Assembly (NCBI GenBank): GCA_964469295.1
Contig: CAYXYJ010000001.1
Location: forward strand, 34,334 to 98,333
Origin: an uncultured Candidatus Saccharibacteria bacterium
Lineage (GTDB): Bacteria > Patescibacteriota > Minisyncoccia > Phycocordibacterales > UBA918
Direction of reading: 5' to 3'
DNA: 64,000 nt
Under the pieces are notes generated by a model. The model was not told where the DNA came from, searched no databases, and saw only the letters and a list, made by a program, of their open reading frames with translations. Below, one piece after another: positions 638-56,946 of this stretch. A program made the translations under genes and the position numbers. The first letter of the stretch is position 1, and each line of letters starts with the position of its first letter.

Positions 638-799
638 AGTTTCTATATGTATTACCACTATACCAATAAATAATATATGCGCCTAGTCAGTATTTGACCA
701 AAACACGGTATAAGTTAGTAAAATCAAATTGGGTGTGTTACCAGGACTTTGAAATTGGTTAACTGCACAAATAACATTCACAGGTTGCTTCAATGATCA

Positions 800-1351: not shown

Positions 1352-1354
1352 ACA

Positions 1355-1840: not shown

Positions 1841-1873
1841 GATATTACTCGAATAAACTTCCTAATTATTATA

Positions 1874-10500: not shown

Positions 10501-10644
10501 TGTGGCATCTATGGTAACTTGCGCGGCTTCAACTATGACTGGACTAAATAAATATTGTAAAAAACCCCACTGCGATAAAAAAATTATCACAATCAAAAAG
10601 CCAGTTAATCCTTTACAGGCAAAAAGCGCTGGACACCTCCACAT
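4495..10644 (-). CDS. giant secreted surface protein (2049 aa): N-terminal BNR/Asp-box-like propeller region, two tandem ~351-aa modules, C-terminal A-type anchoring-like domain
   Basis: Signal peptide FLIVIIFLSQWGFLQYLF. The N-terminal region has Asp-box-like motifs (KTTTGGTSWNS, SNAWSNT, STSAMSSWST). A tandem duplicated module is present (NANTNLKNIKLRYDLDTTAPYDCTSESYSGSESQFGTTDADGFSG... then YHWRNDDGNETGATS...LRLRIGISNEG...YRLEFG...YCFRLT). The C-terminus ...SAQPAGDYETEIVYIALPVY matches the A1/A2 C-termini. Confidence 0.75.
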   Translation of the reverse strand: MWRCPALFACKGLTGFLIVIIFLSQWGFLQYLFSPVIVEAAQVTIDATTSTDANSYFFGGSQTVFVSDTVGYKFYRDSNGSCVYSKTTTGGTSWNSAVTVDARTDCGSMVVWYDQWTPGDSGNYIHIATMETSAAADSLYYNRLDTTSDTLWLGSSPVNATTNSGQVPTLAVGTNNITMTKSTTGDVLIATADASDAFVVHCSTTCNNTANWTEAGSAFLDVTNDWNLLVPLLGGKVMIINRDTSADDMRSRVWNGASWSGLWTTFDANAIENATYDTGMAATVDPVSGDVYLVYAADNDQFTTLDHDIRTAKYSSNAWSNTADVFTNIASRGLTMVAVSMDTNTNNIYVGYVLRTTPATATTGNVYWSTSTSAMSSWSTAQGPVNSTAGDFRGLDMNTMSDERIFISWYDPSPDDMFGDTIADIAPAVKVYANGTATSTVIASSSNVYVGGQYAIRESQASRNVTTITVTERGTVNANTNLKNIKLRYDLDTTAPYDCTSESYSGSESQFGTTDADGFSGSNGTSTFSGLVSISPTQSMCVYAVVDVSKTAVDGDTLSITIESPNNDVVVTGGQTVMPITAVQIASSTVIKNSKFTQTHYHWRNDDGNETGATSVTGGVQDTDLSTLLANSPRRLRVQVSNEGSITATTTRFRLEYATAAPTCEAAASWIDVNATNDAWNMYNSSFVTNGNNTTNIAVGNGGVTDENTTFLTPNDGIRDTSSETGSLTLTSTNFVELEFSIVASTSAHEGTTYCFRLTDNGQALPVYDRYPSATIAADVSVAATGTQVSSLIVPTTNAYVGGKFVIKENVSTRTVSNITIAEDGTINANTNLKNIKLRYDLDTTAPYDCTSESYSGSESQFGTTDADGFSGPNGTSTFSGSVGISTTTTMCIYAVFDVEAGAHNGETIHIGIQSPTNDVVVSSGSVSPSESITLTGTTTLSGSIITQTNYHWRNDNGNETGATSATLGMENTPLTNHSANTPIRLRIGISNEGYATSVSRTYRLEFGPKVTTCDMVAVWTPVGSATDDWDMYDSINITNGNNTTNIANGNGGITDENVNFLVSNAGVRDTTSTTTALVLATNEYTEFEFSITSTNITLVDSAYCFRLTGGGEMLPQYTNYAEIRTAPKRDFKVQQGVAVVTGTSTTLVAGVDYVAPSSTSTAFVRITDTHFTGAGKVTAGGGAQNADDTTAYISQSNLLTSFTISRPTTAINNTRVTWEIVEFIADPGTDNEMKVLGTGTMSLASASTSATGTTVSGVTDDADVVVFITGIQNRNTGRNFFYASQVTTNWDANNNLPTFLRGSTGAIVDVSYAVVEYSGINWNVQRIEHTYASSTITETEAMNPVNSLERTFIHAQKRISNLSNVNNFGHEVWLSSIGAVSFQLESAATTPSGHTSVAWVIENMQTSAGAMVTSREKLTIPSSNSEPYVLSQSIIDPVSATDNTSIFATSRVVGANSNFPLVFAGARITSTSTYEVWRSEASADMVFRSEIVEWPTSGLAVRQNYYRLYADNNTVTPTDPWPPGVTDLGENSPITVTDSPLGENEHVRLRMTLRVANATLPSGLYVFRLQYGLRTTSCATVGSWTNLGDAGSGELWRGYAATGTTDGVSIGSNPPNPGELLISVSDRVGSLIEDGTSPSNPYPVDAGEDVEYEWFVEQNGAAEKSVYCFRMVHADGTPLDGYFNYPQIRTAGFTPQTKNWRFYDDAQNETPATAMANEIVAPTEVQNGNVIALRVTVGEQKHVRGIDTKFSLQYDEDPNFTHPTTLVASSSCTATSTWCYADGGGQENATITTKVLSDADTCVSAVGSGCGTHNRSAVYAAGHTHNAGANAEYAFYLKHAAARAGAVYYFRLYDVYENLPVPAASGEVYPSLVAETPKLSFTVSGLPSGTSTAGVTTTVSTTPTAIAFGSIAPNTNVYAAHRIGITTNATDGYRIYTYARQQLINSYGVSIPSVTGSNAIPVGWSTGCTASATGCVGYHSTDATLLNGSTRFSPLDSYAGLHTALAEIMYSPIPGNESHDMLYRVLVRSAQPAGDYETEIVYIALPVY
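8003..8166. repeat. 164-bp near-identical direct repeat, copy 2 (inside the 2049-aa gene)
   Basis: Compared by eye with 9056..9219. It is identical except for one G/A difference (gggccc vs ggaccc, giving FSGPNG vs FSGSNG). The spacing is 1053 nt, equal to 351 codons. Confidence 0.8.
9056..9219. repeat. 164-bp near-identical direct repeat, copy 1 (inside the 2049-aa gene)
   Basis: Partner of 8003..8166. The flanking module homology is only ~60% at the amino-acid level, so this core looks recently homogenised. Confidence 0.8.
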
Positions 10645-12513: not shown

Positions 12514-13251
12514 TTAATACGCTAGTTTTGTTAACAAAATCGAAAAATCTCTGAAATTCATGACTCCGTCATCATTAAAATCGTACACGGTTGAATGTTT
12601 TGTCCAAGCTGCCAAAAAAGCGCTCACATCAGCCAGTGAGACCTTGCCATCAGTAGTAATATCAAATTGGGTATTTACGGCCGTAATAATTGTATCGTTT
12701 TGATCATTGGTGTGTTTTACTTCAGCCGTTAAAAGACCAACATCTTTGTCAGCCAATTCTGTTCCTCGACCATCACCGGCTAATAATGATACCTTTTTAA
12801 TGGTAAAAACAGCTGAATCAAGTGAATCTGATACCACTTTCAGTGAAGCGATTTTATGCTTTCCGACAAATCCTTTACGGTACGTACCTCCTTCAAAATA
12901 AGCAACATGATCAGTCACAACTGGATCTTTTGTCCATAAGGTAATGACTGATTCACCTTTATCGATAGATTGTACGACTACCGAATTGGGGATGTTGATT
13001 TCTAAATTAACAGCATTTACCGGTTCTTTGGCGAATACATAAATATTCACCGTATATGACTGACCAACAAGTTGTTTGGTGCTGGGCACCTCAATAATAA
13101 CTCGAGTTTCAGCGTTACTTTGCAATACAGCTGCCAAACCTGAAGCAGCCAAAATGAAGAGAAGCCAAGAAAAGGTAAACCGTACGGTTGCTGTACGATT
13201 AGGATAAAAATTTTGAAAATACCGCTTTATCCAAGTGACCGCACGGTTCAT
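12514..13251 (-). CDS. cohesin-like domain protein with C-terminal dockerin
   Basis: 245 aa. After an N-terminal TM there is a cohesin-like beta domain (VIIEVPSTKQLVGQSYTVNIYVFAKEPVNAVNLEINIPNSVVVQSIDKGESVITLW...). The C-terminal part is a tandem EF-hand-like dockerin (DITTDGKVSLADVSAFLAAW...DFNDDGVMNFRDFSILLTKL). Confidence 0.6.
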   Translation of the reverse strand: MNRAVTWIKRYFQNFYPNRTATVRFTFSWLLFILAASGLAAVLQSNAETRVIIEVPSTKQLVGQSYTVNIYVFAKEPVNAVNLEINIPNSVVVQSIDKGESVITLWTKDPVVTDHVAYFEGGTYRKGFVGKHKIASLKVVSDSLDSAVFTIKKVSLLAGDGRGTELADKDVGLLTAEVKHTNDQNDTIITAVNTQFDITTDGKVSLADVSAFLAAWTKHSTVYDFNDDGVMNFRDFSILLTKLAY

Positions 13252-13935: not shown

Positions 13936-15669
13936 TTATTCTACAAGATCAGTAACATCTTTCACTTCTTTATTTACACGTTGTTTTAGTGTGTTTAAAC
14001 CATCAGTCACTAATGTGATAATTTTTTCTTCACTGGTAGTTAATTTGTTAGTTTTTCTTGACTCAGATAATTCAACGACATACTCGTGTAAAGTTTTTTG
14101 TAATCTAGTAAATTCCGCACTAAGTACCGAAGACACTTCAACAGCTTCTTTATCAACATACTGACGCAAGCGTCGTACTCGATACCAGGTATACATGGTC
14201 ACGATAACCAACAATGCCAATAAGGCGATGAGTGGGATAAATACCGTTAAGAACGAAATAACATATGAACCAACTCGTAGTATACCACTTTGTTCGACTA
14301 ATAGTTTTACTGGCGCAGATACAACACTTTGTGCCCCATATTGATCTTTGGCTGAAACCGTAAGTGTATACACACCAGTAGCAAAAGCGTTATCAGGAAT
14401 AAATCTAAATTGACCGGATTCATCAGCAGTCACGGTATAGTTTTTTGGTTCAACACCAGTTTCAAAAACAGTAATAGTCACTTCAGCTCCACCGCGAGTT
14501 TTACCGGTTATGGCGGGAATAATACCGGGCGGAATACGGACGGGTACATCCAGTAGCACCGGAGCATCAAATGCCTCAATCGTAATTGACAGGTTGGCAA
14601 AAGCGCTATTGCCAGCTTCGTCAATCGCTTCAATTACAAGGTTATGGGCTCCTGGTGCCAGATCAGTTACCGTTAGAGAATTTTTGTTGTCGGGATTAGT
14701 AAACTCTTTTATTTCTCCACCATCAACTTGCACTTTGAATGTTTTAATTGGCGCACCATTATTGCTCGTCGTGGTTGCAATAATTGTTTGGCTTGGATTG
14801 GCTAAGTTATTGTCAGGAGCAAGACTAACCGAAAAATTTTCCGGCGCACTGCCATCCACGGCCAAACGATAATGCGTCACCTTACCCCAACCGTCAGCAT
14901 TTTTAAATTGAATATGAAGATACGAAATACCCTCATCCAAATCACGAAGTGTCAGTGATGAGATTGGCGTGTCGTATACTTTGGTGGGAATAGCGGTCGG
15001 GTTACTATCTAAACTGGTACGCACCGCCGTCACTCCGGCTGGTACTGTCCACGTTAACTCAGCGGTGGTACTTTTTGACCAACCATCAGCCGGATGAGTG
15101 ACTGAAGTAACTTTGGGAGCGGTCGGTGTATTCGCTGATGGCACAAATTCCACGACAACTTCTGGCGCGGGGGCCGAACTGGCAGCGGTGACGGTGTAGG
15201 TTCCGCTATTCATATTTGTTAGCACATTTGTACCACGACCATCAGCAGCAAGCACTGAACCACCTGACATCGTAATCCGCGCTGTTCCTGCTACTAACGT
15301 ACGGAACGTTACTGTCATAATGGTACCAGCGGCACCAGTATATCCGCTTGGCGAACCACCACTAAAAGTGATAGTGCCAGCACTATTAGAAAACGTGGGT
15401 TCAGTAGTCCATAGTGAAAAAATAGAACTCCCGCGAGAAACTGCTACAACCGATAATTGGGACGGATCAAATGATACGGTGCCGTCAGCAGCGTTAATTG
15501 ATTTTCCACTCGTATTAACTAAGACCGACACGGTAAATGTGTTACCAATCGTATAGACTCCGGTACTAGGTGACACCGACACTGACGCAGCGTTCACTGA
15601 TACACCAACCCCCAAACCAGCAAATATCACCACGAAAAATACTATTGTTTTATACAAAGAACGAATCAT
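13936..15669 (-). CDS. membrane-anchored cohesin-like scaffold protein with Ig/FN3-like domains
   Basis: 577 aa. The N-terminal domain AASVSVSPSTGVYTIGNTFTVSVLVNTSGKSINAADGTVSFDPSQLSVVAVSRGSSIFSLWTTEPTFSNSAGTITFSGGSP... matches the cohesin pattern. The C-terminus has a TM (FLTVFIPLIALLALLVIVTMYTWY) and a coiled-coil tail. It is a paralog of 50054..51616 (shared SLWTTEPTFSNSAGTITF). Confidence 0.6.
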   Translation of the reverse strand: MIRSLYKTIVFFVVIFAGLGVGVSVNAASVSVSPSTGVYTIGNTFTVSVLVNTSGKSINAADGTVSFDPSQLSVVAVSRGSSIFSLWTTEPTFSNSAGTITFSGGSPSGYTGAAGTIMTVTFRTLVAGTARITMSGGSVLAADGRGTNVLTNMNSGTYTVTAASSAPAPEVVVEFVPSANTPTAPKVTSVTHPADGWSKSTTAELTWTVPAGVTAVRTSLDSNPTAIPTKVYDTPISSLTLRDLDEGISYLHIQFKNADGWGKVTHYRLAVDGSAPENFSVSLAPDNNLANPSQTIIATTTSNNGAPIKTFKVQVDGGEIKEFTNPDNKNSLTVTDLAPGAHNLVIEAIDEAGNSAFANLSITIEAFDAPVLLDVPVRIPPGIIPAITGKTRGGAEVTITVFETGVEPKNYTVTADESGQFRFIPDNAFATGVYTLTVSAKDQYGAQSVVSAPVKLLVEQSGILRVGSYVISFLTVFIPLIALLALLVIVTMYTWYRVRRLRQYVDKEAVEVSSVLSAEFTRLQKTLHEYVVELSESRKTNKLTTSEEKIITLVTDGLNTLKQRVNKEVKDVTDLVE

Positions 15670-16694
15670 ATAATTTCATTTATCTCGTCGGTGATAGTTG
15701 TCGTCGCTTGTTTTTTCAATCTTCGACGTCGCCAGAAAATCACACTAATAATAATTAGAATAACAACAAACAAACCACCAGCTCCAATAATCAAAAAGTT
15801 GGTTGCGTTTTTATACCATGGCATAGAAAGGCCTTGTGGGGCTAACGTGGCCACATATTCATTTCCAGCTTTATCAATAGCTCGAACTCGAATGATACTT
15901 CGTAATGTCTGATCTTTAAGCACGTATGGACTACGCACTTCAGCCCATGGAGCAGTCGCCGCTCCAAATGAAAACCAATTAGCTTCTTCAGTGGATTCTT
16001 CTAGCACCTCGTAGTGACTAATGCCAGTTTGTTTGTCGGTAGTGTTAAAAACAATGAAATATTTATTATCAAACGCATAATTGTCTTGCTCAAGTGAAAT
16101 ATCAAATGGTTCTGGAGTGATGGTATCTTCGGCTACAGTATCGCGCCAACCATCAATAATATCCGAGCCAACGAAACTATTAAGTGTTAGCGTGGTGCCA
16201 AGTGTAGTCATAGTTGCCGCTGTACCAAAACCATCGTTTAAATATGCCGTTGTTTCTGGGGCAAAATTAACAGCAGCCATACCAGCCGATTCACCGCCGC
16301 CGATTTGCAATCCGGGTGAGCGAAATACGATTTCAGCCACCACATTAGTCAAACGAGGGTCACCTTCTATTCGTCTGCAATAACCATTGGGAATACCGCC
16401 AGCAAAAGTGATGGTACGATGTTCTTTATCAATCTTTGGATTTTCAACCCACACTGGGAAAATTGACCGACCAATTGACACATCAACGGGAACGATACTT
16501 GCATCATAGGTTACCACACCGTCAATCGCATTAATACATTCACCTTCAGCTTCATTAGTGTCCACTCGTAACGCTATCGTTACCGCATCACCACGATTTA
16601 ATGTGGCGGTTGGCGGATCCATATATAATGTCGCGGCCATTACTGGTGCACAAGACACAGACCAAAGAACTGCTCCAATTAAAAATTTCCACAT
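15666..16694 (-). CDS. cohesin-like domain protein with C-terminal TM anchor
   Basis: 342 aa. Signal peptide WSVSCAPVMAATLY. The domain ...DAVTIALRVDTNEAEGECINAIDGVVTYDASIVPVDVSIGRSIFPVWVENP...ITFAGGIPNGY fits the cohesin pattern. C-terminal TM LIIGAGGLFVVILIIISVIFW is followed by RRRRLKK. A 4-nt overlap with the upstream gene is present. Confidence 0.5.
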   Translation of the reverse strand: MWKFLIGAVLWSVSCAPVMAATLYMDPPTATLNRGDAVTIALRVDTNEAEGECINAIDGVVTYDASIVPVDVSIGRSIFPVWVENPKIDKEHRTITFAGGIPNGYCRRIEGDPRLTNVVAEIVFRSPGLQIGGGESAGMAAVNFAPETTAYLNDGFGTAATMTTLGTTLTLNSFVGSDIIDGWRDTVAEDTITPEPFDISLEQDNYAFDNKYFIVFNTTDKQTGISHYEVLEESTEEANWFSFGAATAPWAEVRSPYVLKDQTLRSIIRVRAIDKAGNEYVATLAPQGLSMPWYKNATNFLIIGAGGLFVVILIIISVIFWRRRRLKKQATTTITDEINEII

Positions 16695-16749: not shown

Positions 16750-16784
16750 AGCAAAAACCCTACTCGTGGTGGGAGATAGGGTTA
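16750..16784 (-). terminator. rho-independent terminator downstream of A1
   Basis: The minus-strand transcript reads AACCCTAtCTCccaccacGAGTAGGGTTTTTGCTTTG. That is an ~8-bp stem with one bulge and a 7-nt loop, followed by a U5 tract. Confidence 0.5.
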
Positions 16785-16818: not shown

Positions 16819-18024
16819 TTAGAACACTGGTGTTGCTACGTATGTCAGCGTAGCGGTATAGTCGTCTCCGGCTTCTTGTAGATCTGAGATTTCAACTTTG
16901 TATCCAACGCGCGTTCGACCGATATTTGCAGTCGTTCCGTCTGATGGACCATCATGTCTGAATACCTCAACCGGTGTAGTTGAAGCAGAAACAAATAATT
17001 GTCCTGTTCCTCCCACATCAAACGGATCATCAAGATTTTCCGTTAACGTCTCATCTTCAGTTGTCAGACCCCAATGTCCCCAAGTGTCTTCATCACTAAT
17101 AGATTCTGAAGGTTGTACCCACGTCACAGGTGTCGTGGTATATGCTCCATCAATAAATCCATCAATATCAGCACCCGTTGATGACAATAATTGTTGGTCT
17201 ACAGCCACCGTAACAACGAATCCATAGCTGGCGTTAGTTGCTACTGATAGCTGTTGAGCTGCGGTTGAAGCAGTCCCAGCTTCCAAGACTCCAAATGGAA
17301 TCGCCGTAGCGGTGGTATCGCCGGTGATTAATTCGCTATTTACATAGCCACCCGCGTTTACTCCATCAACGGTAAAAGTGAAACTGGTATCAACTGAAGC
17401 GGTGACAACGACTGGTGACACGATCGCGACTCGAGTAGCTCCAGTATCTGTTGCTCCGGCTTCAATGTTAATCTCATATGAACCAACCGTAGGATTAGTA
17501 ATCTGATTTACACCAGAAGCACCAAAAGTGGCATTTGTTCCAATTTCAATGGTTGTTGTCCCATTAACTGGCAGTGAGCCCCCATCACCAGGACAGAAGG
17601 TCAGAATGATTTCATCAGACAAAGCTGAAAAACCAACTTGTTCTGATCCGGTACAGTCAGCAGCCACATCAAGATCGGTAGCGTCATCAGCAATATCAAC
17701 ATCTTCATAGTCCACCGCACCAAGTACGAATGGTCCATCGGAAAAGTCGATAGTGATAGAATCCCCTTCTGCCACTCCTGTTGGAGTAACAAATGTGATC
17801 GTGTGATTGGCACCAACTGATGGTGCTGAATCTGATAATGTATCACTTACTAATTTGACATTTGCGGCTTCCGCAAAGCGAAATGTAGGCACTCCGAGTG
17901 TCCACATAAGGACAGTGAAAGTAACTACAAAAGCCACAGCTTGGAGTAGACCGAACGTGGTTTTCGTTCTACTCATGTAACTACTACGTTGTATTAGCCT
18001 GACACTGCCGTATCTGAAAAACAT
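16819..18024 (-). CDS. A-family secreted surface protein A1 (S-layer-like/WxL-like candidate) with conserved C-terminal motif ...AGDDYTATLTYVATPVF
   Basis: 401 aa with a signal anchor (LLQAVAFVVTFTVLMWTLGVPTF). It is acidic and T/G/A/V/S-rich. It shares long blocks with 56947..58074 (GTNATFG..G.N.ITNPT.GSYE, TSFTFTV, WGHWGLT, C-terminal LQEAGDDY..(L)TY(V/I)ATP.F). It has its own terminator and a 445-nt upstream leader. Confidence 0.7.
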   Translation of the reverse strand: MFFRYGSVRLIQRSSYMSRTKTTFGLLQAVAFVVTFTVLMWTLGVPTFRFAEAANVKLVSDTLSDSAPSVGANHTITFVTPTGVAEGDSITIDFSDGPFVLGAVDYEDVDIADDATDLDVAADCTGSEQVGFSALSDEIILTFCPGDGGSLPVNGTTTIEIGTNATFGASGVNQITNPTVGSYEINIEAGATDTGATRVAIVSPVVVTASVDTSFTFTVDGVNAGGYVNSELITGDTTATAIPFGVLEAGTASTAAQQLSVATNASYGFVVTVAVDQQLLSSTGADIDGFIDGAYTTTPVTWVQPSESISDEDTWGHWGLTTEDETLTENLDDPFDVGGTGQLFVSASTTPVEVFRHDGPSDGTTANIGRTRVGYKVEISDLQEAGDDYTATLTYVATPVF

Positions 18025-18296
18025 TTACAGCAACGCACAGCGCGACCCTGCATCGTTCGTGAGTGTGGTCTCCACCCCACTTCCCAACTATTGAATGAAA
18101 GGCATATCAAGTCTGTAACACCGGCTGAGTGCCCTCTTACGCGACGAGAGCAGCGTCACTAAAATTTGACACCTCCAAACTTGATACAAATTTATTGTAC
18201 ATGGTAATGATTGCTAAGTCTGTCGGTTATACACAAAAGATTGCAGCCATTATCACTCGCTCACAGAAAAATAATATTCTGTTGATATGTTGGCAC

Positions 18297-18364
18297 CTAT
18301 CCCTTCACTACATATTCGTAATGTAGTCGCTTGGCAGGGAATGGAGAATATGTAGTGAAGGGAT
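18297..18364. promoter_or_regulatory. 22-bp perfect inverted repeat (cctatcccttcactacatattc / gaatatgtagtgaagggatagg) with a 24-nt loop in the long A1 upstream region
   Basis: Seen directly in the sequence. No U-tract follows on either strand, so it is unlikely to be a simple intrinsic terminator. It may be a leader-RNA structure or a protein-binding palindrome. Confidence 0.45.
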
Positions 18365-18468
18365 AGGAACCGATATGGTACATCAATCAAAGTGAAAATA
18401 AATATATCCTGCAATGAAGATATTCAACTTAGAATACTGAATCAATCGACGATAAATAATAGTAAAAT

Positions 18469-19593
18469 TTATCCAGTCCAGTTAAAAAGCAAAATTGAAA
18501 AATCTTCCAACCCAACTTTTCCATTACCATTTATATCTGCCGGCGGATTAGAATCCCCACCATTTGTTTGCCACCAAAATATTAAAATTGAAAAGTCGGT
18601 CAGGTTAATTTTTCCGTCACGACTTAAATCGCTTGGAGTAGCCGGCGCTCCATCCACACCGACAAACAGTTGCACAATCGAACTATACCCACTTTGCGTT
18701 AACAACGGCGCCGTTCCGGTCACTGATCGAGCTTTTAACGCATACTGGGCGTTAGCTAATCCTGTTGTATTAAGGGTGTAAGAAAATTTTCCACTCGCGT
18801 CACTGGTTGCTCGTTCTATCCTCGCACTACTACCAATTTGTAATTCAATTTGTGCATTCGGGATACCTTGACCGGCGATAGTCACCGGGCTTCCCGCTGC
18901 AATTTTTGCTGGTGTTACTGCTATCGTCGGCGGCAAAATCAGGCCAGACAAATTTGTGATGGCCCCTTGTGTAACGTCAAACGTATTATTTAAGGTAATT
19001 GATCGACGCCCCGCTGAATCGTTTGCCCACACTCCTAATGTTGCCGTTCCCGGCGAAACTTCCGTGGCAAATTCAAAACGACCGTTACTTCCCGCCCGGA
19101 CAGAGCCGACTGAACGCGAATCGATTAGAAAGTTAATTTGTTGACCAGGGTATCCCAATCCAGTTACACTAACTGATGTATCACCTAAATCTTTAGTGCT
19201 TCCACCGCGCCCACCACTTCCACCGCCACTACTTCCACCACCACCAGAACCAGCTGGTTCGACAGTACAGGTGGCCGAACAAAAGTCACCACTATCATTA
19301 TTAGTATCATCGCACTCTTCTCCATAAAGAGTTTGCAAAATACCATCTCCGCAATAGGGTCCAAAATCGCAGGTAGCTGTACATTGTCGGCCAGCAATGG
19401 TTGTACTGTAGAGACCCGTTTCTCCTAATACATCACATTCTTCGCCAGCATCAACCAATTCATTACCACAAATACTTAAATTAATGACCGTATCAATATT
19501 CTGAGTTGATGTGGCAATCAATTGAGCATTCACGGTTGTAGCTGACAAAGCGAGCGCGAGTAATGCACTTATGGTCAGCAAATACACACGCAT
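18469..19593 (-). CDS. secreted protein with Myxococcus-type cysteine-rich repeats, Gly/Ser linker, Ig-like region and C-terminal dockerin
   Basis: 374 aa with a signal peptide. The Cys-rich repeats are CGNELVDAGEECD... and CGDGILQTLYGEECDDTNNDSGDFCSATC. A linker GSGGGGSSGGGSGGRGGS follows. The C-terminal dockerin is SDLSRDGKINLTDFSILIFWW...DINGNGKVGLEDFSILLFNWTG. Confidence 0.6.
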   Translation of the reverse strand: MRVYLLTISALLALALSATTVNAQLIATSTQNIDTVINLSICGNELVDAGEECDVLGETGLYSTTIAGRQCTATCDFGPYCGDGILQTLYGEECDDTNNDSGDFCSATCTVEPAGSGGGGSSGGGSGGRGGSTKDLGDTSVSVTGLGYPGQQINFLIDSRSVGSVRAGSNGRFEFATEVSPGTATLGVWANDSAGRRSITLNNTFDVTQGAITNLSGLILPPTIAVTPAKIAAGSPVTIAGQGIPNAQIELQIGSSARIERATSDASGKFSYTLNTTGLANAQYALKARSVTGTAPLLTQSGYSSIVQLFVGVDGAPATPSDLSRDGKINLTDFSILIFWWQTNGGDSNPPADINGNGKVGLEDFSILLFNWTG

Positions 19594-19594
19594 A

Positions 19595-20551
19595 TTATTT
19601 TTGTCTTGACCGTCGAGAACGACGATTATGAATAATAAAGAGCGTTGTTACGATTAATGCAAACACTGGCAGTGTTACAGAAATTTTATGGGCCAAAGAT
19701 AAACCAATAAACCCAAAACCAGCCGTTTGTAATGTGCCATACGGCAAGATACTAAGATTTAATTCACCTTCTTGTTTTACATCTTCACCATTATAGATTA
19801 CATAGCGAGCAATATAGCTACCGCTAGGTAAATTAGTAGGAATTTCCGCTACCACTTCTTCAGTTGCATATGGAGCAATCTTTTTGATACGGCCGAGGTG
19901 ACTGGTATCTTGTAACAAAACAGCACCAGAACGGTCATAAATTTTAAACTGTACGCGTGAAGGCGCAATATCAACGTTACCAGTATTTTCTAATAACATT
20001 GAGAACTGAATTTTTCCTGGGAAGTATAGCCAACCAAATTTATGCCCTTCATTTAAATCACTTACTGTAATTTTACGAACACGAAAATCCTCAATCACTT
20101 TATCAATAACAGACAAATCAATATCAACTTGTGCTCCTAAAGAAATACTAACCACACCTTCAGACACCTGATCGTTTGCCGGCATAGTTCTGATACGAAT
20201 TTTGCCACTGTAATCACCGAATTCAGCGTCACTCGGCACTTTTACTCGTACCGTCATTGGCACCTTCTGTTCACCACGTGGCATTGGAATAGATGTTCCT
20301 TCCACAATTTCAATCCAATCCAAAATCTCAGGAGCATCAACTACCACTTCAGCAGCCAATGCTTCATTTGGGTCACCACGTACTAAAAGAATTTGCTGTT
20401 CGTAAACACTGTTACGAGTCAAACTCGTATTACGCACATACGGCGGTGTAATACCAAAACTAGCAAATGACGTAGCGGGAAAAAGTATTAGTGTAACAAG
20501 CACCAAAAAAAACAATGAACGTATATAACGGGCTCTAAAACGTATCAACAT
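19595..20551 (-). CDS. B-family paralog B3 (DUF916-like surface protein with C-terminal TM anchor)
   Basis: 318 aa. Signal peptide LFFLVLVTLILFPATSFASFG. Two beta domains are followed by C-terminal TM TLPVFALIVTTLFIIH and tail NRRSRRSRQK. Its stop is 2 nt from the next gene's start. Confidence 0.55.
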   Translation of the reverse strand: MLIRFRARYIRSLFFLVLVTLILFPATSFASFGITPPYVRNTSLTRNSVYEQQILLVRGDPNEALAAEVVVDAPEILDWIEIVEGTSIPMPRGEQKVPMTVRVKVPSDAEFGDYSGKIRIRTMPANDQVSEGVVSISLGAQVDIDLSVIDKVIEDFRVRKITVSDLNEGHKFGWLYFPGKIQFSMLLENTGNVDIAPSRVQFKIYDRSGAVLLQDTSHLGRIKKIAPYATEEVVAEIPTNLPSGSYIARYVIYNGEDVKQEGELNLSILPYGTLQTAGFGFIGLSLAHKISVTLPVFALIVTTLFIIHNRRSRRSRQK

Positions 20552-20580: not shown

Positions 20581-20620
20581 CTAAAAAGCAATAACCACTG
20601 TTAGGATAACAGTGGTTAAC
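20581..20620 (-). terminator. rho-independent terminator downstream of the 624-aa gene
   Basis: Minus-strand RNA reads UUAACCACUGUUA-ucc-UAACAGUGGUUA followed by UUGCUUUUU. That is a 12-bp perfect stem (20592..20603 / 20607..20618) plus a U-tract. Confidence 0.6.
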
Positions 20621-20690: not shown

Positions 20691-22565
20691 TTACCAGTTG
20701 GCAGGTGCAGAAATCGCTCCCGTGAAGGTGTTGCGTCCAGTATATGAACCAGCAAGGCTAATGGTTCCTGGAACAGCAATACCCCAATATGTTACACCCG
20801 ATGTTGGTGTGGTTGTACTTGTTGGTTTAAGAATGCGAATGTCCAAAGTTGCTGGTGTTGAGGTAGGCTGTAATTGTGTCCCCGAAGCAAAGGCTACTGC
20901 TGATGTAGCATATCGCTGTTGATCTTGTGGAATAGTTGATGAAGCAGAAACTGGACATGGATTAAGTGGCGAGTATGTTGTACACATTGAGTCGCCTCCC
21001 AGTAATTGATTAAGCCCAGTGTTACCAACAGCGCGCATGGTTGTGGTTGCGGTTAGGTTGTTCATTTGGTTACCCGGCTCAAGTTGGTCGTACGCAATTA
21101 ACTGAGTCACTAAATCAATTGCTACTAATGACAATAGTTCGACAGGACTGGTAGAAGTTGACATCGAACCAGTAGCGTTATTATTATCAACTCCAGCAAT
21201 ACCAGCTACCCAATGTTGCGCACTAAACGGTGTACCCGAAACTGTTGGATCAGCGATAAACCATAATGGGAAAGTACAGTTATAAATGATTGTGTCATCA
21301 GTAGCACCAGTACAAGACGTTGTTGACGCCGTACATGAAAGGTTCCAGTTAGAAGCTCCAACACCGCTTGGGTAACAGTTGTTGGCGTTATAACTACCAG
21401 CAGTACCATTACATGTTGAGGTACCAATATTACTTCGAAATACTGAAGCAACGTACCCAGTGATTTCATCAGCCGCTCCTCCACCAACCGCATCACAACT
21501 GTTAGCATCAGCAACAGTAAACTGCAATGAGAAACCGGTTGTTTGTCCGGCAGGGGTAGTTAAAATAATATCATTACCACCGTTAAGACTAATGGTACCT
21601 CCAGCCACTGTTGGCGCTACATTACTAACAGTAAACGTAACATTTCCACCTTGCGCACCACCAGTTGCTTCATGACCATGTTGGTCGTATAAATACGCAT
21701 AGGCATTATAAGTGGTGTCTTGCACAATTGCCGGTAACGTATAGGTAGCCGAAGCATTAGCGAGCACACCAATAGTCGTGGTAGCCAAAACATCAAGTGG
21801 GTTACAAGTATTGGTGGTTGTACTGTATGTAGGGTTACTACAGACGACTAAGAAAATATTGTCTTCAGCATCAACAACGTCAGGGTCAGTAGAGGTTGAT
21901 CCAAAGACCAGGATACCTCCTGGATTTACTGGACCATTGTTGCCAAACGTTGTAAATACTGGTCGACGGTTAACGTTAAATGGTGACGTGTTAGTTGCTG
22001 CTGTTCCTTGTGAATAAGACGTACTGCAGCGTGGGTTTACTGGATCATCGTCACACACCCAAGCATACCAAGCATTTGATTCGGCAAATGGAGCTACTTC
22101 AGTCGTGGTGGTCGCCGCTCTTGCTTGTGTACCACTGATGGTACTGGTTGACACGGCATACCGTGTACCAGCACTACAGATTGGCGCTGCCGTTCCAAGC
22201 GTTGAAGTGGACATTTGCGCCGTTGGTGTCGCTGAAGTGCTGCAGATAATAAGAAAGTAAGGCGCGCCGTTAGCATCAGTGGCGGTTCCTACCCAAGAAA
22301 TCGTATCACCAGAATTTGTCGGTGTGGACGTTGACGATTCATATTGTTCACGCCCCTCTTGACCGACCACCCATACTGGCGGGGTGTTCAATACTGTCAA
22401 TGTGGTGGTAGCAGTACTGGTCGCTTCGGCTTTTTGCAATTCAGTTTTACCGATGTTAAAGATAAAGATAAAGGCAAAAATTAATACCCCTGTTAAAGCT
22501 GTTAATATGGTAATTTTTCCCGCTTGTTTCATGTAGTGCGGGGCTACGTATTTGTTGTACAACAT
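20691..22565 (-). CDS. Thr/Ser/Cys-rich membrane-anchored surface protein
   Basis: 624 aa. N-terminal anchor ITILTALTGVLIFAFIFIF. The rest is very T/S/A/N-rich with many Cys and no recognisable catalytic motif. It is not a type IV pilin (no G-FTLIE). Confidence 0.45.
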   Translation of the reverse strand: MLYNKYVAPHYMKQAGKITILTALTGVLIFAFIFIFNIGKTELQKAEATSTATTTLTVLNTPPVWVVGQEGREQYESSTSTPTNSGDTISWVGTATDANGAPYFLIICSTSATPTAQMSTSTLGTAAPICSAGTRYAVSTSTISGTQARAATTTTEVAPFAESNAWYAWVCDDDPVNPRCSTSYSQGTAATNTSPFNVNRRPVFTTFGNNGPVNPGGILVFGSTSTDPDVVDAEDNIFLVVCSNPTYSTTTNTCNPLDVLATTTIGVLANASATYTLPAIVQDTTYNAYAYLYDQHGHEATGGAQGGNVTFTVSNVAPTVAGGTISLNGGNDIILTTPAGQTTGFSLQFTVADANSCDAVGGGAADEITGYVASVFRSNIGTSTCNGTAGSYNANNCYPSGVGASNWNLSCTASTTSCTGATDDTIIYNCTFPLWFIADPTVSGTPFSAQHWVAGIAGVDNNNATGSMSTSTSPVELLSLVAIDLVTQLIAYDQLEPGNQMNNLTATTTMRAVGNTGLNQLLGGDSMCTTYSPLNPCPVSASSTIPQDQQRYATSAVAFASGTQLQPTSTPATLDIRILKPTSTTTPTSGVTYWGIAVPGTISLAGSYTGRNTFTGAISAPANW

Positions 22566-22641: not shown

Positions 22642-23856
22642 TTATTCGTAGCGAATGGCGTCAAGTGGATTTAGTGATGACGCTCGACGCGCTGGAAAAA
22701 TACCTGTGAGATAGCCAACCGCGGCCGAAAACACCGCAATAAAAACCAAAAAACCAACCGGAAAAGAAAACAATTGTACTGCCTGTCCACCAAACTGCCC
22801 AGCTACAATATTTAGAAAAATATTAACGGTGAGTCCTAATCCGACACCCATTACAATACCGCTAATACCACCCAAAAACCCTACCACGACCGATTCAGAC
22901 ACGAATAAATATTTTACATCGTTTGGTGACGCGCCAATAGTACGCATGATGCCGATTTCTTTGGTGCGTTCAAGGAGTGTCACTGTCATAGTGTTAAACA
23001 TGCCAATAGCTGATACCACGAGTGCAATCCCACCAAACGTCGCGAGGACAATTTGAATACCTTGAAAGATTTTAGAAGCTTGTTCAACTGTTTTTGACAA
23101 AGCAGTCACACGATACCCTTCTTCAATAAGTTGCTTTTCGACGATTGGTAGATTTTCATTTGTATCAACCCGCACCTGAATACGTTCATATTCGTCAATG
23201 CCAACGTAGTTACGTAACTCCGGCAACATCATCATTGCATTAAGTAACCCCTCTTCTTTGGTAATCCCTCGTACCGTGTATTCTTTGTCAATAACGATTT
23301 CTGTATTGGCAGCAGTACCGTCATTGGCGGGAATCAGGATACGAAACGTGACTTTTTGTCCAACAAATTCTTTTGGATCATCTACACCGAATAATTTAAG
23401 TACCGCCGGCGATAACATCACACTGCTGGTATCTCCAGCATCTTCGTCATCAAACACTTCGCCAGCATTGGCAGATACTCCAGCATATCGCAAATACGGT
23501 GGTTCTACTCCTTGAATAAACACGTTCCCGGTGAGACCTTTATAGGTAACCAGCGCCGGGAACCGAGCCAGTGGTGCAGCATCAAGCACTTCAGGTAGCT
23601 CTTCAAAATTCGCTACAGTGTCATTTGTTAATTTGAGATTTTGTGCGCCCGTGGCTGACACACCAAGGGATAAAAGGGTTTCTCCAAATACAATCTGTTC
23701 AAGAATAATTTGTTGTAAACCAAACCCTAGCCCCACCAATACCACGACCGCTCCAGTACCGACACCCATACCTAAAATGGTCAACCACGTTCGCAAAGGA
23801 TTGGTTTTGAACATACGTGTCGAGAGTTGGGCAAGATCTTGAAGCCGCATAGACAA
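22642..23856 (-). CDS. ABC transporter permease, FtsX/MacB-LolCE family
   Basis: 404 aa. N-terminal TM (TWLTILGMGVGTGAVVVLVGLGFG), a large extracytoplasmic domain, and three C-terminal TMs with a conserved FtsX-type tail (LERTKEIGIMRTIGASPNDV...GIFPARRASSLNPLDAIRYE). Confidence 0.8.
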   Translation of the reverse strand: MSMRLQDLAQLSTRMFKTNPLRTWLTILGMGVGTGAVVVLVGLGFGLQQIILEQIVFGETLLSLGVSATGAQNLKLTNDTVANFEELPEVLDAAPLARFPALVTYKGLTGNVFIQGVEPPYLRYAGVSANAGEVFDDEDAGDTSSVMLSPAVLKLFGVDDPKEFVGQKVTFRILIPANDGTAANTEIVIDKEYTVRGITKEEGLLNAMMMLPELRNYVGIDEYERIQVRVDTNENLPIVEKQLIEEGYRVTALSKTVEQASKIFQGIQIVLATFGGIALVVSAIGMFNTMTVTLLERTKEIGIMRTIGASPNDVKYLFVSESVVVGFLGGISGIVMGVGLGLTVNIFLNIVAGQFGGQAVQLFSFPVGFLVFIAVFSAAVGYLTGIFPARRASSLNPLDAIRYE

Positions 23857-23882
23857 TTACATTATGACACACTGGTTGCGCA

Positions 23883-25205
23883 TTAATTTTTGTAACTCAC
23901 ATCTACTCCTTGGGCAATGAGTTTTTCAAAGTACCGAGTAATATCGTCAGCTTCTTTTTCAGACAAGGCTAATCCATGAGTCCGCACCCCTTGCATAAGT
24001 CGAGCATTAAAATCAACTTCTTCAGCCACACCAGTCACTCGGTCAGCAATCAATTCAACCAAATTTGCATTTTGGTCTTTTGATAATTTCATATTCCACG
24101 TATGGAGCAAATGGTCACGCAATCGTTCAGCAAGTGTATGCTGACTGAAAAATACCCCGGCGTTGTCTTTTTTTGCTCGAAACCGCCGAATATCATCAGC
24201 TTGGTGAATCATCTTTTCACTACGTTTCGCCATTTCTTTGGCAACTTTCTCTTCTATTTGTACTCCCCCTCTCTCTAGTGGCAACACGAGTGATTTGATA
24301 AAAGCATCCCGATCAATTTTTCCTTTTATAAAAAAGCCAATGGCACGCTCGAGGCGTTGTAATTGATCAAACGTGTAATCTTGAGTTAAATAGTTGACCA
24401 TGCTTTTGATACGTAACGTATCAACCGAATCATAGGGAAATAAACGAGCTAATTGTTCTAACTCAGTCACAATTGTTTCACCTTCACGCACTGGTTTGAT
24501 TTGTTTTCGTTGTGGATTAACGACTTCACGGACAATAAAGCCATCCTTGAGGTAATACACTCGGTGAGCGTACGACAAGTGAGCCGCGTTGTGCGATACC
24601 ATAATAATGGTCCGTCGATCAAACGTATTAATTTCGTCAATTTTGTCCATTACTTGTTGTGTCGAAATAGAATCAAGGTTACCGGTTGGTTCATCCGCAA
24701 GTAAAATTTTTGGATCATTCACCATACTTCTTGCTACCGATACACGCTGCTGTTGACCGCCAGACAACATTGAAGGAATTTTATGTGACACATGCCCTAC
24801 CCCAAATCGATCAAGCAGTGACTGGGCGCGACGATTACGGGCTTGTTTGTCAGCGTTACAAAAAATCATTGGGAGTGCTACATTATCAAGCACCGAAAGA
24901 GACCCAATGAGGTTAAAGGATTGAAAAATAATCCCCATTACATACCGCTGAAAATATACTCGTTCTGATGGCGGATACGAATAAATATCGTCACCGCGAA
25001 TGAGGAGGGTTCCATCGCCAGGAGGTAACGAACCTTGAATGGAATACATGAGGGTTGATTTACCCGAACCAGAAGCACCGAACAAAATAATATATTCGCC
25101 TTCGTAAATGTCGGTATTTACATTTTGGAGCGCTCGAAACTCGTTGCTTTTACCTTTGTTATATATTATCGAAAGATCCCGACAAACGATGAGCGGTTTT
25201 GCCAT
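23883..25205 (-). CDS. ABC transporter ATP-binding protein (MacB/LolD-type NBD) with ~210-aa C-terminal extension of unknown function
   Basis: Walker A GASGSGKST, signature LSGGQQQRVSVARS, Walker B ILLADEPTGNLD and H-loop MVSHN. An additional 210 aa follow the NBD, which is unusual. Confidence 0.8.
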   Translation of the reverse strand: MAKPLIVCRDLSIIYNKGKSNEFRALQNVNTDIYEGEYIILFGASGSGKSTLMYSIQGSLPPGDGTLLIRGDDIYSYPPSERVYFQRYVMGIIFQSFNLIGSLSVLDNVALPMIFCNADKQARNRRAQSLLDRFGVGHVSHKIPSMLSGGQQQRVSVARSMVNDPKILLADEPTGNLDSISTQQVMDKIDEINTFDRRTIIMVSHNAAHLSYAHRVYYLKDGFIVREVVNPQRKQIKPVREGETIVTELEQLARLFPYDSVDTLRIKSMVNYLTQDYTFDQLQRLERAIGFFIKGKIDRDAFIKSLVLPLERGGVQIEEKVAKEMAKRSEKMIHQADDIRRFRAKKDNAGVFFSQHTLAERLRDHLLHTWNMKLSKDQNANLVELIADRVTGVAEEVDFNARLMQGVRTHGLALSEKEADDITRYFEKLIAQGVDVSYKN

Positions 25206-26755: not shown

Positions 26756-29700
26756 TTATGGTGAAACTGGAGTAAAAACGTTGATACCTTGGTGTGGCGC
26801 ACTATTAACACCAAGAGGTACCGAGATTCCCCAATACAATTGTGTCGAGACGAGAGGGCTTTCAGTTACTGGTTTGTCCAGATTAACTGCCAATTCAACG
26901 GGTGTCGTACTTGACAGAAGTGAACAGGTAGCACAAGCACTATATGAGAACGTTGAAGTTGCCAGTTTTTGTTGTGAGGCTGGAATCACTGATGAATGTC
27001 CGTCAGAGAGATCGGTTCCGAGAATTTCGAGATCAAAGGCAACATTACCAGTATTTGAGACTGTCGTAGTTGGATTATAGGTTCCAGTGTTATCATCAGG
27101 CGCTAATGACCCATAATTAATCGCACTATCAACAGTTAGAGCACGCAACGTGAGCAACTCGACACCGAGCGCTGAGGCAAAATCATACCCACCACCCGTA
27201 TCATTGACTTCCATATAGGCCATCCATTCTTCCCCTTCATATGCACCGGCATCAGTTGGATCGGCATGGAAGTAAATATCAGATGAACACACCAATGAAC
27301 AAGTGTTACCGCTACATGCCGTTAAGTGACAACTATTATTGGTGGTTGAAATGTAACAATTGTTTGTGTTTGCCGAACAAGCCGCACCGGCACCACTGCG
27401 ATACATGGTTGAGGTACCACTGACAATATCAGCGTACCCATTAAAGTCAGTAACTGTACTTGAAGCAACGATCGTTGTGGTTGCGTTTGGTGTCAGCACA
27501 ATCGGCTGTCCATTATTTAGCGTCACTGGACCAAATACCGGATCGAATTGCAACCCTAATTCAGGAACCGCTTCATAATAGTCTAATGGAGTACCATTAT
27601 TGGTCACACGGAAACAATAGCTATCGGACGCCGCTACAGTCGGAGTGATGACATACTCTAGTTCAGTATATGTATGTTGAGGAACATCCATTGCGCTGGT
27701 ACTCGTGGCTGGACTTTCCACGATTCGACCAGTGGTATAGCCGCCACTCATATTTGCCAGTAAGTCAGTAGTATTGTCGTCACCAGTAATATATGACGAT
27801 GATTGCATACATACGGGTGAAGATCCGCATGAAGCCTGGTTTGGTACTGGCGCAAACGAACCTTGAGCCACTGACTCGCAACTTGGAGCCGACGCTTTCG
27901 CTGCGTAATCTAGGCGGAATTGTTGACTGGTAATATCAAGACCAGTGTTTTCAATACCAATACGTAAGCGACGAGTTTCACCCGGAATGGCTCCACCCAT
28001 AGCATTTTGAGCCGCTGCCCACGTAGAGCCACCAGCCGTTTGCTTGGCTCCAAAGTACACTGTTGGTCGCCGTGGACTAAGACCGCGGACAGTGTAACTA
28101 TCCCAAGAACCGTTTTGGAACCAGAAAGTAAAGCCCATACCGCCAGAAGTGTAACTACTGTTAATAACAGTCGTACTCGCCACCAATGATCCGGCGGTGT
28201 TATACAAGTAGGCACTGATGCGGTTGTTGGTAAACCAATCGACTTCAACTTCGTACCAACCCGTAGCGTACGTGACGGTGGTCGATGCCAAAATAGTTCC
28301 AGACACATCGTTATCATCAACGTCTTTTGATATCACCATACGATCTGTACCGAATTGTTCCAAACAAATTGCGTAATTATTATTTGCATTTTGTACAGCA
28401 AACAATGTACACGCTTCATCACCGGAACCAGCACTAATATCAATATATTGCATCCAACGGATTGTTTGATCTTGCGCTGTTTGCGAACCAGTGCGGTAAA
28501 TACCATCAGTGGTACGGCCACTCTTATTTGATGCTTCAAGCGCATAGGTACCACCGTATACTGGAGCAGTATCCGTTTGGAAGAGACTGGTGTCACCACT
28601 ATATTCAGTAATATTGTTGTCTTCAAACGTATCGACAAAGGTAAAGGTATTACCTGCATTACTGGTTGATGAAGCCGTTCCATTACCATAATACATAAAT
28701 ACAGTCGCTGCACCGGTGGCTGGAACACTTGGTACTTGCACCCACACTACGGCTTCGGTACTCGCCACATAGCGTTCGATCCAATACGGTAACGATGTCA
28801 ACCCATTATTACCAGTGAATCGTAGATCATCGAAGTCCGATTGCATACTGTTATCGTACGTCACTAACAACTTTACAGAGGTTGTCGCATACGAGTTGCC
28901 AGTAGCATTATGTACGCGAACACGTTGACGATAATCCCAGTCTCCGTCAAACCATTCGCTATCTGGGGCTCCTTCTCCACCGTTGTCCATACGCCACCGA
29001 GCATCAGATTGGGTGGTCAACAGACAAGCACTGTCATTAAATCGAATTGATCCACAAGCATCAAGACCGTCAATGTCAAATCCTTCAGTTCCAAGTGAGC
29101 CGTAGGCATCAGTAAACCGCCACGCGTTTGTTGTCGTACCAACCAACTCCACACCGTATCCAGATACGGCACCCGCATGCATTCCAATCGCGTTATAAAT
29201 TTCCGATGCGTTGGCGTCTACCACACTACTGGTGACAGTAATCAAAGATCCAGTATCAACCACTAATCGTAAATTATTATTACTGAATTGTGATAGATTG
29301 ACATTTCCTGATAACGCAATACCTTCTGACCACATATCAGTCACTGAGGCATACCGCATTGACAATGAACCACCCATAGCGCTAAAAGCATAGGTGCCAC
29401 CATTAAGCGCTGCTATCGATGTGGTTGCGCCAACGCCACCAATAATATCCAGGGTACCAGACATCAATGTACTTGAAGCTGACGGGGCAAAACGTACCGT
29501 TACCGAACGTTGGGCTGGACCAGTGAGTGTTGTTCCATCAAAATCAATTGAATAACTCCAATATTCAGACGTCGTAGCAATGGTAAAGTCACCATAAATA
29601 TTAAGTACCCCATCAACCGCTCCGTGATCTTGTGAATACAACGAAGCAGTCAATCCAGTCGTAGTCGTGGCAGCTGAACTGTTCCACATACGAACGTGCG

Positions 29701-56836: not shown

Positions 56837-56879
56837 CAGTATATCACTTGTCTGTCATCATAGATTACTCCTATAAACA

Positions 56880-56916
56880 GGTACACAAAAAGCCCCTAAA
56901 GGGCTTTTTGTGTACC
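56880..56916 (-). terminator. strong rho-independent (bidirectional-type) terminator downstream of A2
   Basis: A perfect 16-bp inverted repeat ggtacacaaaaagccc / gggctttttgtgtacc with a 5-nt loop (ctaaa). A U-run follows the stem on the minus transcript. Confidence 0.7.
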
Positions 56917-56946
56917 TCTAATATTCAATTTTAGAACAGTGAATCT

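Follow-up and report, generated by a model that had tools for sequence, protein, structure and literature searches.

The closest described counterparts of the locus reported here, a stretch of 64,000 nucleotides (hereafter the window) that encodes a pilin-like protein, A1, a chaperone-like protein, B3, and, between them, the dockerin protein DOC374, are the Pam pilus, chaperone-usher pili, the WxL/WxLIP surface proteins and cohesin-dockerin systems. We conclude that the window probably holds a ~60-kb conserved surface-appendage cluster of a Paceibacteria bacterium, a member of the candidate phyla radiation (CPR), and that this cluster represents a variant Pam pilus system combined with cohesin-dockerin attachment. 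The conclusion draws on folds, domain families, paralogy, synteny, gene spacing and RNA covariation. CPR bacteria (Patescibacteria) represent a large share of bacterial diversity, and most of them are thought to live attached to other cells. To our knowledge, the machinery with which they attach is almost unknown.

A structure of the Pam pilus became available as recently as 2026; it comes from a single cultured species of Saccharimonadia, the CPR bacterium Ca. Mycosynbacter amalyticus, and covers two filament subunits (Troman et al., bioRxiv 10.64898/2026.03.03.709456). According to this preprint, Pam pilins polymerize by donor-strand exchange, and conservation in PamA and PamB is highest in the linker and in the site of the C-terminal domain (CTD) that binds it. 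PamC and PamD are predicted PapD/FimC-like chaperones with a C-terminal transmembrane (TM) helix, which is absent from canonical chaperones. In M. amalyticus, PamA ranks 2nd and PamB 9th in protein abundance; two chaperones are proposed there for at least five pilin-like proteins, the chaperone genes being interspersed with the pilin genes and not paired with them. The system is reported mainly from Saccharimonadia and Microgenomatia. Cohesin, dockerin and Paceibacteria are not mentioned in the preprint, and our literature search returned no paper linking cohesin-dockerin modules to CPR pili.

The present locus shares with Pam a CPR lineage, PapD-like two-domain chaperones with a C-terminal membrane helix, the lack of an usher, and the presence of several pilin-like and chaperone genes in one cluster. 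It differs in its Paceibacteria host, in a sequence similarity that lies below threshold, in its four chaperone paralogs and in a giant protein of 2049 aa that ends in a pilin CTD. Conserved cohesin/dockerin proteins, a MacB-type ATP-binding cassette (ABC) transporter and a structured leader RNA are found here, none of which is described for pam, whereas the ATP-synthase neighborhood of pam was not seen.

With the chaperone-usher pili (Pap/Fim), the locus has in common the chaperone fold (Foldseek E ~1e-7 to FimC, PapD and Caf1M), a proposed donor-strand complementation/exchange, a pilin C-terminal β-strand of alternating hydrophobic residues, and a tip-adhesin logic in which a large receptor-binding part is joined to a pilin domain. 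Unlike in those systems, there is no outer membrane and no usher (no usher family was among the matches of 27 window open reading frames (ORFs), a set without the 7749-aa protein and with Pfam run on 9 ORFs only), the chaperone is membrane-anchored rather than soluble and periplasmic, the donor strand would be the inter-domain linker rather than an N-terminal extension, and the pilin has an extra N-terminal domain (NTD).

WxLIP proteins (DUF916-DUF3324) of Enterococcus and Lactobacillus are membrane-anchored, consist of two immunoglobulin-like (Ig-like) domains and a TM helix, and are predicted to insert a β-hairpin into their partner (PMC10599100). B3 shares this build, its two Ig-like domains lying between a signal peptide and a C-terminal TM helix; the difference is that its presumed partners here are pilin-like and that the sequence similarity is marginal. 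Shared with cohesin-dockerin systems are the C-terminal dockerins of two duplicated calcium-loop segments on secreted proteins and the N-terminal cohesin modules on anchored scaffolds; the protein at 12514..13251, which has both, resembles an adaptor scaffoldin. In contrast to those systems, the locus has no carbohydrate-active enzymes, its anchors are TM helices and not S-layer homology (SLH) domains or sortase, its genes are interleaved with pilus genes, and one dockerin protein carries a pilin NTD.

The locus suggests that Paceibacteria have a Pam-related system among their core, highly conserved features, with thousands of metagenomic homologs. What is new is its combination with cohesin-dockerin connectors, giant adhesins and a MacB-type transporter, which offers ideas on how a pilus might be anchored in a cell with no outer membrane, usher or sortase. 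The locus also contains a strongly supported new structured RNA, tied to expression of the main subunit and belonging to no Rfam family.

Pilin-like and chaperone-like families

The members of the two families in the window are:
16819..17976, minus strand: A1, predicted Pam-type major pilin (385 aa from the conserved start; AlphaFold2 (AF2) model, conservation, sub-threshold NF058581 match)
19595..20551, minus strand: B3, predicted membrane-anchored PapD/WxLIP-like pilus chaperone (318 aa; AF2 model, Foldseek, family homology)
55745..58074, minus strand: second A/B instance, pilin A2 (56947..58074) then chaperone B4 (55745..56836), a pair kept in ~25 loci
1874..10644, minus strand: further A/B instance, the 2049-aa protein (4495..10644) then B genes at 3510..4586 and 1874..3535 (BLASTP)

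The ORF program lists A1 as 16819..18024 on the minus strand (401 aa). All close homologs use the conserved ATG at 17976, giving 385 aa, and the CAACGTAGAG motif just 5′ of this ATG is invariant. A1 is a secreted protein of two β-sandwich domains joined by a linker strand: its AF2 model (mean predicted local distance difference test score, pLDDT, 85.9) shows a signal helix (residues 6-26), NTD strands (41-185), an unpaired linker (186-198) and a CTD (199-385, with strands to 383). Across 82 A-family sequences, V189, V191, A193, V195, T197 and F201 of the linker are conserved at 99-100%, the residues between them being variable, and the best-conserved windows are 191-200 and 361-385, i.e. the linker and the C-terminal strands. 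A1 codons 4-9 (17950..17970, minus strand) contain an inverted repeat, GAACG-N7/8-CGTTC, which is kept between species despite changed residues.

The sole NCBIfam match of A1 is NF058581, CPR_Pam_pilin_C ('Pam pilus system pilin subunit'), with 27 bits and E 4e-6, a score that is weighed below; this model derives from the Pam preprint. At an E threshold of 0.01 the same model, and no other in NCBIfam, is matched by 41 of 56 A-family members, at best with E 5e-8. Membership of the A family in Pam is backed by architecture, conservation pattern, gene context and this sub-threshold similarity, with no curated cut-off reached; A1 was likened to PamA and PamB (PDB 25PZ and 25QA) by their published description. 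We propose that A1 is the abundant shaft pilin of a Pam-like pilus.

All-against-all BLASTP of the window ORFs places three members in the A family, namely A1, A2 (53% identical to A1) and the C-terminal 170 residues of the 2049-aa protein. The CTD of the latter aligns to the A-type CTD (E 3e-8), and the donor-strand motif upstream of the CTD is not kept. With an acceptor domain and no donor motif, the 2049-aa protein is a candidate giant tip adhesin, judged by its sequence. A small PamT-like protein, i.e. an acceptor domain with no donor strand, was not identified, and profile-profile comparison found no A-type domain in DOC374, the cohesin proteins, h228, the propeller protein or h493. Homologs of A1 number more than 2000, all unannotated and from Parcubacteria/Paceibacteria/Kaiserbacteria-type metagenomes.

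The AF2 model of B3 (pLDDT 94.1) comprises a signal helix (residues 2-23), two Ig-like β-sandwiches (32-148 and 156-269), a C-terminal TM helix (286-317) and a basic tail. In Foldseek searches against the PDB, the top-ranked match overall is the fibril form of peptidase Vpr (E 1.2e-9); the best functionally comparable matches are WxLIP of Enterococcus faecium (9i25/9i1y, E 6e-9 to 4e-8), followed by the chaperones FimC, PapD, CfaA, DraB and Caf1M (E 1e-7 to 2e-6), and RbmA appears as a weak match. Sequence searches of the PDB with A1, B3 and the family profiles gave nothing useful. Among 85 B-family members, three match Pfam WxLIP domains (WxLIP_HBD in two, WxLIP_PGBD in one). B3, too, has over a thousand homologs, all unannotated and from metagenomes of the same types, with 957 cluster representatives at E<=1e-3, and the best 120 matches each of A1 and B3 are 64-80% identical to the query. 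In the window, the B family consists of 1874..3535, 3510..4586, B4 and, as a divergent member, B3, which is linked to the others by BLASTP (E 4e-5 to 1e-4) and by profile-profile comparison (probability 97%, E 3e-11). As modeled, B3 has the architecture reported for PamC and PamD; in terms of the Pam pilus, the A family fits its pilin and the B family its membrane-anchored chaperone.

Gene order, transcription units and the A1 leader

The genes and hairpins next to A1 and B3 are:
20691..22565, minus strand: h624 (624 aa), a conserved Cys-rich secreted protein encoded next to B3 on the upstream side, and possible client of B3
20592..20619, minus strand: terminator-like hairpin between h624 and B3, with a 12-bp stem and a T-run, ~40 nt before the B3 ATG
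18469..19593, minus strand: DOC374, dockerin/Cys-repeat protein (374 aa; Pfam/NCBIfam matches over cut-off)
16756..16783, minus strand: terminator-like hairpin downstream of A1, AACCCTA...TAGGGTT then TTTTGC

A scan of the GTDB species representatives with the A-family alignment gave 271 stretches that encode an A1 relative, and gene context was taken from 80 of these loci. The order h624, B3, dockerin gene, A1, cohesin-like protein of 342 aa, cohesin protein of 577 aa is kept in ~45 Paceibacteria species, with A1 identity down to ~47%, and the B3-dockerin-A1 arrangement occurs in every one of the ~44 related loci that span it, which is more than chance would give. Every gene of the window is encoded on the minus strand. 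A1, DOC374 and B3, the three ORFs of the initial annotation, are indeed present on that strand where it had placed them, and the Cys-repeat and dockerin matches that it named exceed curated cut-offs.

The spacing between these genes differs markedly along the row. B3 stops with TAA at 19597..19595, and after one base DOC374 starts with ATG at 19593; the near-contact claimed earlier is real, the spacer being 1 nt. Over 44 loci this gap has a median of 3 nt and a range of -11 to 30, with one outlier of 215, and we conclude that B3 and the dockerin gene are translationally coupled. h624 always adjoins B3, at a median of 92 nt (range 80 to 302). From the dockerin gene to A1 the gap is 492 nt here and 509 nt in the median (range 241 to 3869; 46 loci), and in the locus L001 it accommodates three additional genes, of which one runs the other way. 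A1 is separated from the next gene by a median of 133 nt (range 69 to 979).

Conserved hairpins fall into the same pattern. In 51 of 56 loci a hairpin with a T-run and a conserved sequence occurs no more than 130 nt past the A1 stop, and a comparable one follows h624 in 35 of 43 loci, as against just 20 of 48 after the dockerin gene. A general scan for sigma-70 promoters and terminators showed no enrichment over shuffles, so that our promoter and terminator calls rest on cross-species conservation. The core of the h624-B3 hairpin, CCACTGTTA...TAACAGTGG with its T-run, is kept in sequence in many species; this hairpin could be a leaky terminator or an operator.

The region between DOC374 and A1 contains, in addition:
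18296..18369, minus strand: long inverted repeat with a stem of ~22-24 bp, in the stretch from the dockerin gene to the promoter region of A1
18194..18237, minus strand: promoter-like region of A1, with the box TTTGTGTATAA (18237..18227) and the -10-like TACAAT (18199..18194)
18044..18193, minus strand: structured leader RNA of A1, a multi-helix junction P1-P4 and a hairpin P5, supported by covariation
17984..17997, minus strand: invariant motif CTAATACAACGTAG(AG) just 5′ of the A1 start, probably the translation-initiation region

Both the TTTGTGTATAA box and TACAAT are at least 90% conserved in 21 loci, and the -10-like box sits 72-77 nt upstream of an invariant CAGCC in nearly all loci. The ~210-nt leader holds the invariant blocks CAGCC and GTGGAGAC, the loops UUCAGCCGA and GGAGUGGAGACC of its structured RNA are invariant, and CAACG and the adjoining positions near the start are invariant in 44 leaders. 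RNAalifold, applied to 34 leaders, folds them into a multi-helix junction and a hairpin with compensatory changes in 28 of 36 pairs. In this alignment 90.8% of cells pair, versus 35-46% when the partners are slid, and the covariation score is 0.58 versus ~0.10, a value that none of 500 shuffles reaches. A covariance model built on the leader gave 51 matches in 1.45 Mb, exactly one upstream of each A1-type gene and including 12 loci outside the seed alignment; the window copy scores 95.7 bits, and no copy was found upstream of A2-type genes or elsewhere in the 1.45 Mb. The leader could serve mRNA stabilization, or ligand or protein binding.

Rfam gave no match at gathering thresholds over the whole window, and at E<=10 in 17900..18500 it returned only spurious microRNA matches on an unrelated hairpin and one weak small nucleolar RNA match upstream of the leader. 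The leader contains a conserved GGAGG, far from the start codon. We rejected a small upstream ORF there (GGAGG...ATG): its ATG is not conserved and the flanking bases covary as a hairpin. The repeat at 18296..18369 is near-perfect, has no T-run and is specific to this genome, in a part of the gap that does not align between loci; it was also rejected as a known RNA, having only spurious microRNA-type matches in Rfam.

The spacing, the -10-like box and leader of A1, and the terminator-like hairpins divide the row into the transcription units h624, B3 with the dockerin gene, A1, and the cohesin genes. A1 would form a monocistronic unit under its own control, the arrangement expected of a subunit made in very large amounts. 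That it has a -10-like box, a leader and a terminator to itself likewise fits a very abundant structural protein, in line with the abundance of PamA and PamB. These units modify several earlier claims. The gap that had been described as a 445-nt leader of A1 measures 492 nt, because the conserved A1 start is the ATG at 17976, and only its last ~210 nt look transcribed, the rest being non-conserved spacer and the promoter-like region. The shared transcriptional neighborhood of the A/B and cohesin-dockerin genes is correct as a conserved gene neighborhood and does not hold as one transcription unit. As for the third A/B instance, A and B are true paralogous families, whereas the layout is not that of the other two, in which B directly follows A: here B3 lies upstream of A1 and after h624.

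This layout is one of several points that weigh against a Pam-type pilus in which B3 serves A1. B3 does not adjoin A1 and directly follows h624. In the locus L058 (9778..11143), A1 and its leader RNA stand directly after a 520-aa cohesin gene, and the giant, ABC transporter, h624, B3 and dockerin genes are missing, so that the A1 unit is separable from B3. The 27 bits of A1 are far under the curated NF058581 cut-off of 55, for an alignment that covers model positions 2-40 of 148, and the fold matches of A1 among solved structures are generic, with low template-modeling scores (Ig-like adhesins, sortase pilins, BslA/YweA, a TasA-like protein and cohesins). The C-terminus of h624, taken as a possible Pam-type acceptor domain, has no similarity to the A-type CTD in profile-profile comparison. 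Finally, no RbmA-like PamR anchor was recognized in the cluster; the dockerin protein doc642, described below, and the TM-anchored cohesin proteins are differing candidates.

The client of B3 may be A1 rather than one of its immediate neighbors. The main alternative, which is possible though doubtful, is that the cluster is Pam-like and the pairing of A1 with B3 spurious: B3 would serve h624 (with the giant protein of the same C-terminus) and/or DOC374, and A1 would be chaperoned by B4, B2 or B1. The C-terminal 300 aa of h624 resemble the C-terminus of the 7749-aa giant (BLASTP E 6e-18), and both the position of B3, trailing h624 at a conserved ~92 nt and coupled to the dockerin gene, and the separate transcription of A1 would suit such clients, as would the B genes of the other two instances, each found directly after a gene with an A-type CTD, and the A1 of L058 with no B3 upstream. 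On the other hand, interspersed genes are also the rule in M. amalyticus, with its two chaperones proposed for at least five pilin-like proteins (10.64898/2026.03.03.709456), the missing similarity of the h624 CTD to a Pam-type acceptor domain argues, at the sequence level only, against h624 as a client, and the level of conservation, unusually high, is much the same in B3 as in A1.

The A1 leader also bears on a reading in which A and B make no pilus at all. Long stabilizing 5′ leaders are typical of S-layer genes too, and A1 might be a non-filamentous abundant surface protein (S-layer-type or adhesin), with B3 as a WxLIP-like permanent membrane anchor that inserts a β-hairpin, as proposed for Firmicutes WxL proteins. 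The fold comparisons leave some room for this, given that WxLIP is the best functionally comparable match of B3 and has the same Ig-Ig-TM architecture (PMC10599100), that a few B-family members match Pfam WxLIP domains, and that the matches of A1 include non-pilus adhesins and BslA/YweA. We nevertheless regard this reading as improbable: none of nine neighboring proteins scanned against Pfam and NCBIfam has a WxL domain, the A family weakly but specifically matches the Pam pilin model and nothing else, a linker invariant on one face together with an invariant C-terminal strand is what donor-strand exchange requires, and the A-type domain at the end of the 2049-aa giant recalls a tip adhesin with a pilin domain attached.

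Cohesin and dockerin proteins

Besides DOC374, two further features carry the link to cohesins and dockerins:
13936..16694, minus strand: two membrane-anchored cohesin-type proteins (342 aa and 577 aa), candidate dockerin receptors directly downstream of A1, in a conserved position
52273..54201, minus strand: doc642, fusion of an A-type NTD, a linker-like strand and an Ig-dockerin module (642 aa; hhalign)

DOC374 is a secreted protein in which a signal peptide and two Cys-rich repeats are followed, after a Gly/Ser linker, by two Ig-like domains and a dockerin at the C-terminus. It scores 42.1 bits against the Myxococcus-type Cys-rich repeat TIGR02232 (cut-off 20.8) and 24.1 bits against Dockerin_1 (cut-off 22.9). 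Across 45 orthologs, the Cys repeats and the dockerin are the best-conserved parts, and the calcium-loop segments DLxRDGxVNLxDFSILIFWW and DINGNGxVGLEDFSILLFNW are nearly invariant.

The 577-aa protein (13936..15669) matches Pfam Cohesin with 33 bits (cut-off 24.1), and the 342-aa protein (15666..16694) is homologous to it (hhalign E 4e-27); C-terminal TM segments are seen in both sequences. The N-terminal module of the 577-aa protein recurs in 15666..16694, 12514..13251 and 50054..51616, the second of which (245 aa) carries both a cohesin and a dockerin. Past its TM helix the 577-aa protein has a cytoplasmic tail (residues 468-576) with weak matches to the archaellum scaffold ArlX/FlaX, which are probably due to coiled-coil composition only.

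In doc642, residues 37-194 are homologous to the A-family NTD (hhalign 99.5%, E 1.8e-22), and the C-terminal 240 residues are the Ig and dockerin module of the DOC374 family (E 3.8e-67). It keeps the linker-like strand LVAIVDQVGVGPVDT and has no A-type CTD. A strand donor with no acceptor, joined to a dockerin, points to a terminator holding the base of the pilus on a membrane-anchored cohesin, and by its domain content doc642 is a candidate pilus terminator and cohesin adaptor. The dockerins of DOC374 and doc642 may pair with the cohesins of the cluster, as far as the sequences indicate.

Because doc642 fuses a pilin NTD to a dockerin module, gene fusion being a classical sign of such a relation, a functional link between the pilus and the cohesin-dockerin proteins is indicated. 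The idea of the initial annotation that two attachment systems cooperate gains from this fusion and from the partnership conserved in ~45 species; its notion of a bracket formed as one operon has to be given up. Cohesin-dockerin pairs do work autonomously elsewhere. That those of the cluster are a separate surface display or cellulosome-like system merely sharing a gene island with the pilus genes is very unlikely, even with a DOC374 in which Pfam/NCBIfam scans find no enzyme or pilus domain and a Pam preprint silent on cohesin and dockerin, in view of the strict interleaving B3-DOC374-A1-cohesin-cohesin and A2-B4-...-doc642-...-cohesin kept over deep divergence, the translational coupling of B3 with DOC374, and the doc642 fusion itself.

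Proposed assembly and the wider cluster

For a Pam-like pilus with cohesin-dockerin attachment, we propose the following assembly. A1 would be expressed apart from its neighbors, from its own promoter, with the ~210-nt structured leader and its own terminator, and would be exported by Sec. The four paralogous PapD/WxLIP-like chaperones, B3 among them, would stay tethered to the cytoplasmic membrane by their C-terminal helix, and a chaperone would cap the open domain of a subunit until its handover to the growing fiber. By analogy with Pam, polymerization would proceed by donor-strand exchange, the C-terminal Ig-like domain of A1 being completed by the linker strand of the next subunit. DOC374 would be made together with B3; after secretion, its dockerin might plug into the cohesin of the membrane-anchored proteins encoded downstream of A1, and the docked protein would display its Cys-rich head at the cell surface. 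Finally, doc642 would join both attachment systems by terminating the pilus and docking its base to a cohesin.

Put together, monoderm-like CPR cells would build a pilus by donor-strand exchange, with its base held by the cohesin-dockerin joint of doc642, a giant pilin-domain adhesin at the tip, DOC374-type heads on the same cohesin scaffolds, and a major pilin under an undescribed leader RNA that acts as a riboswitch or protein-binding regulator. We offer this composite tentatively, and it is unlikely to hold in all its parts.

The genes around the B3-DOC374-A1 row form two conserved blocks. The first, almost invariant in order, runs through a 7749-aa giant, h493, an ABC ATPase, a MacB-type permease, h624, B3, the dockerin protein and A1, and continues with the cohesin-like protein of 342 aa, the cohesin protein of 577 aa, h228, the 245-aa cohesin and dockerin protein, a propeller protein and the 2049-aa protein. 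The second, equally conserved, consists of A2, B4, the 642-aa dockerin protein, an Hsp20, a cohesin protein of 520 aa and a giant protein, and is contiguous with the first in the window.

The giant secreted protein of 7749 aa is encoded at 26756..50005 on the minus strand and has its last 300 aa in common with h624. The MacB/FtsX-type permease and the ABC ATPase, with its C-terminal extension of ~200 aa, occupy 22642..25205 (minus strand). Every A1-type locus has the two next to h624-B3 on its upstream side; a role in energizing secretion or assembly is possible. At the end of the cluster, a ResA/DsbE-like thiol-disulfide oxidoreductase (800..1351, minus strand) may serve the many Cys-rich secreted proteins. 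The loci L004, L005, L024 and others are titled 'uncultured Candidatus Saccharibacteria bacterium', and their gene content matches that of loci titled Paceibacteria or Kaiserbacteria, which indicates that the Saccharibacteria titles are probably generic labels.

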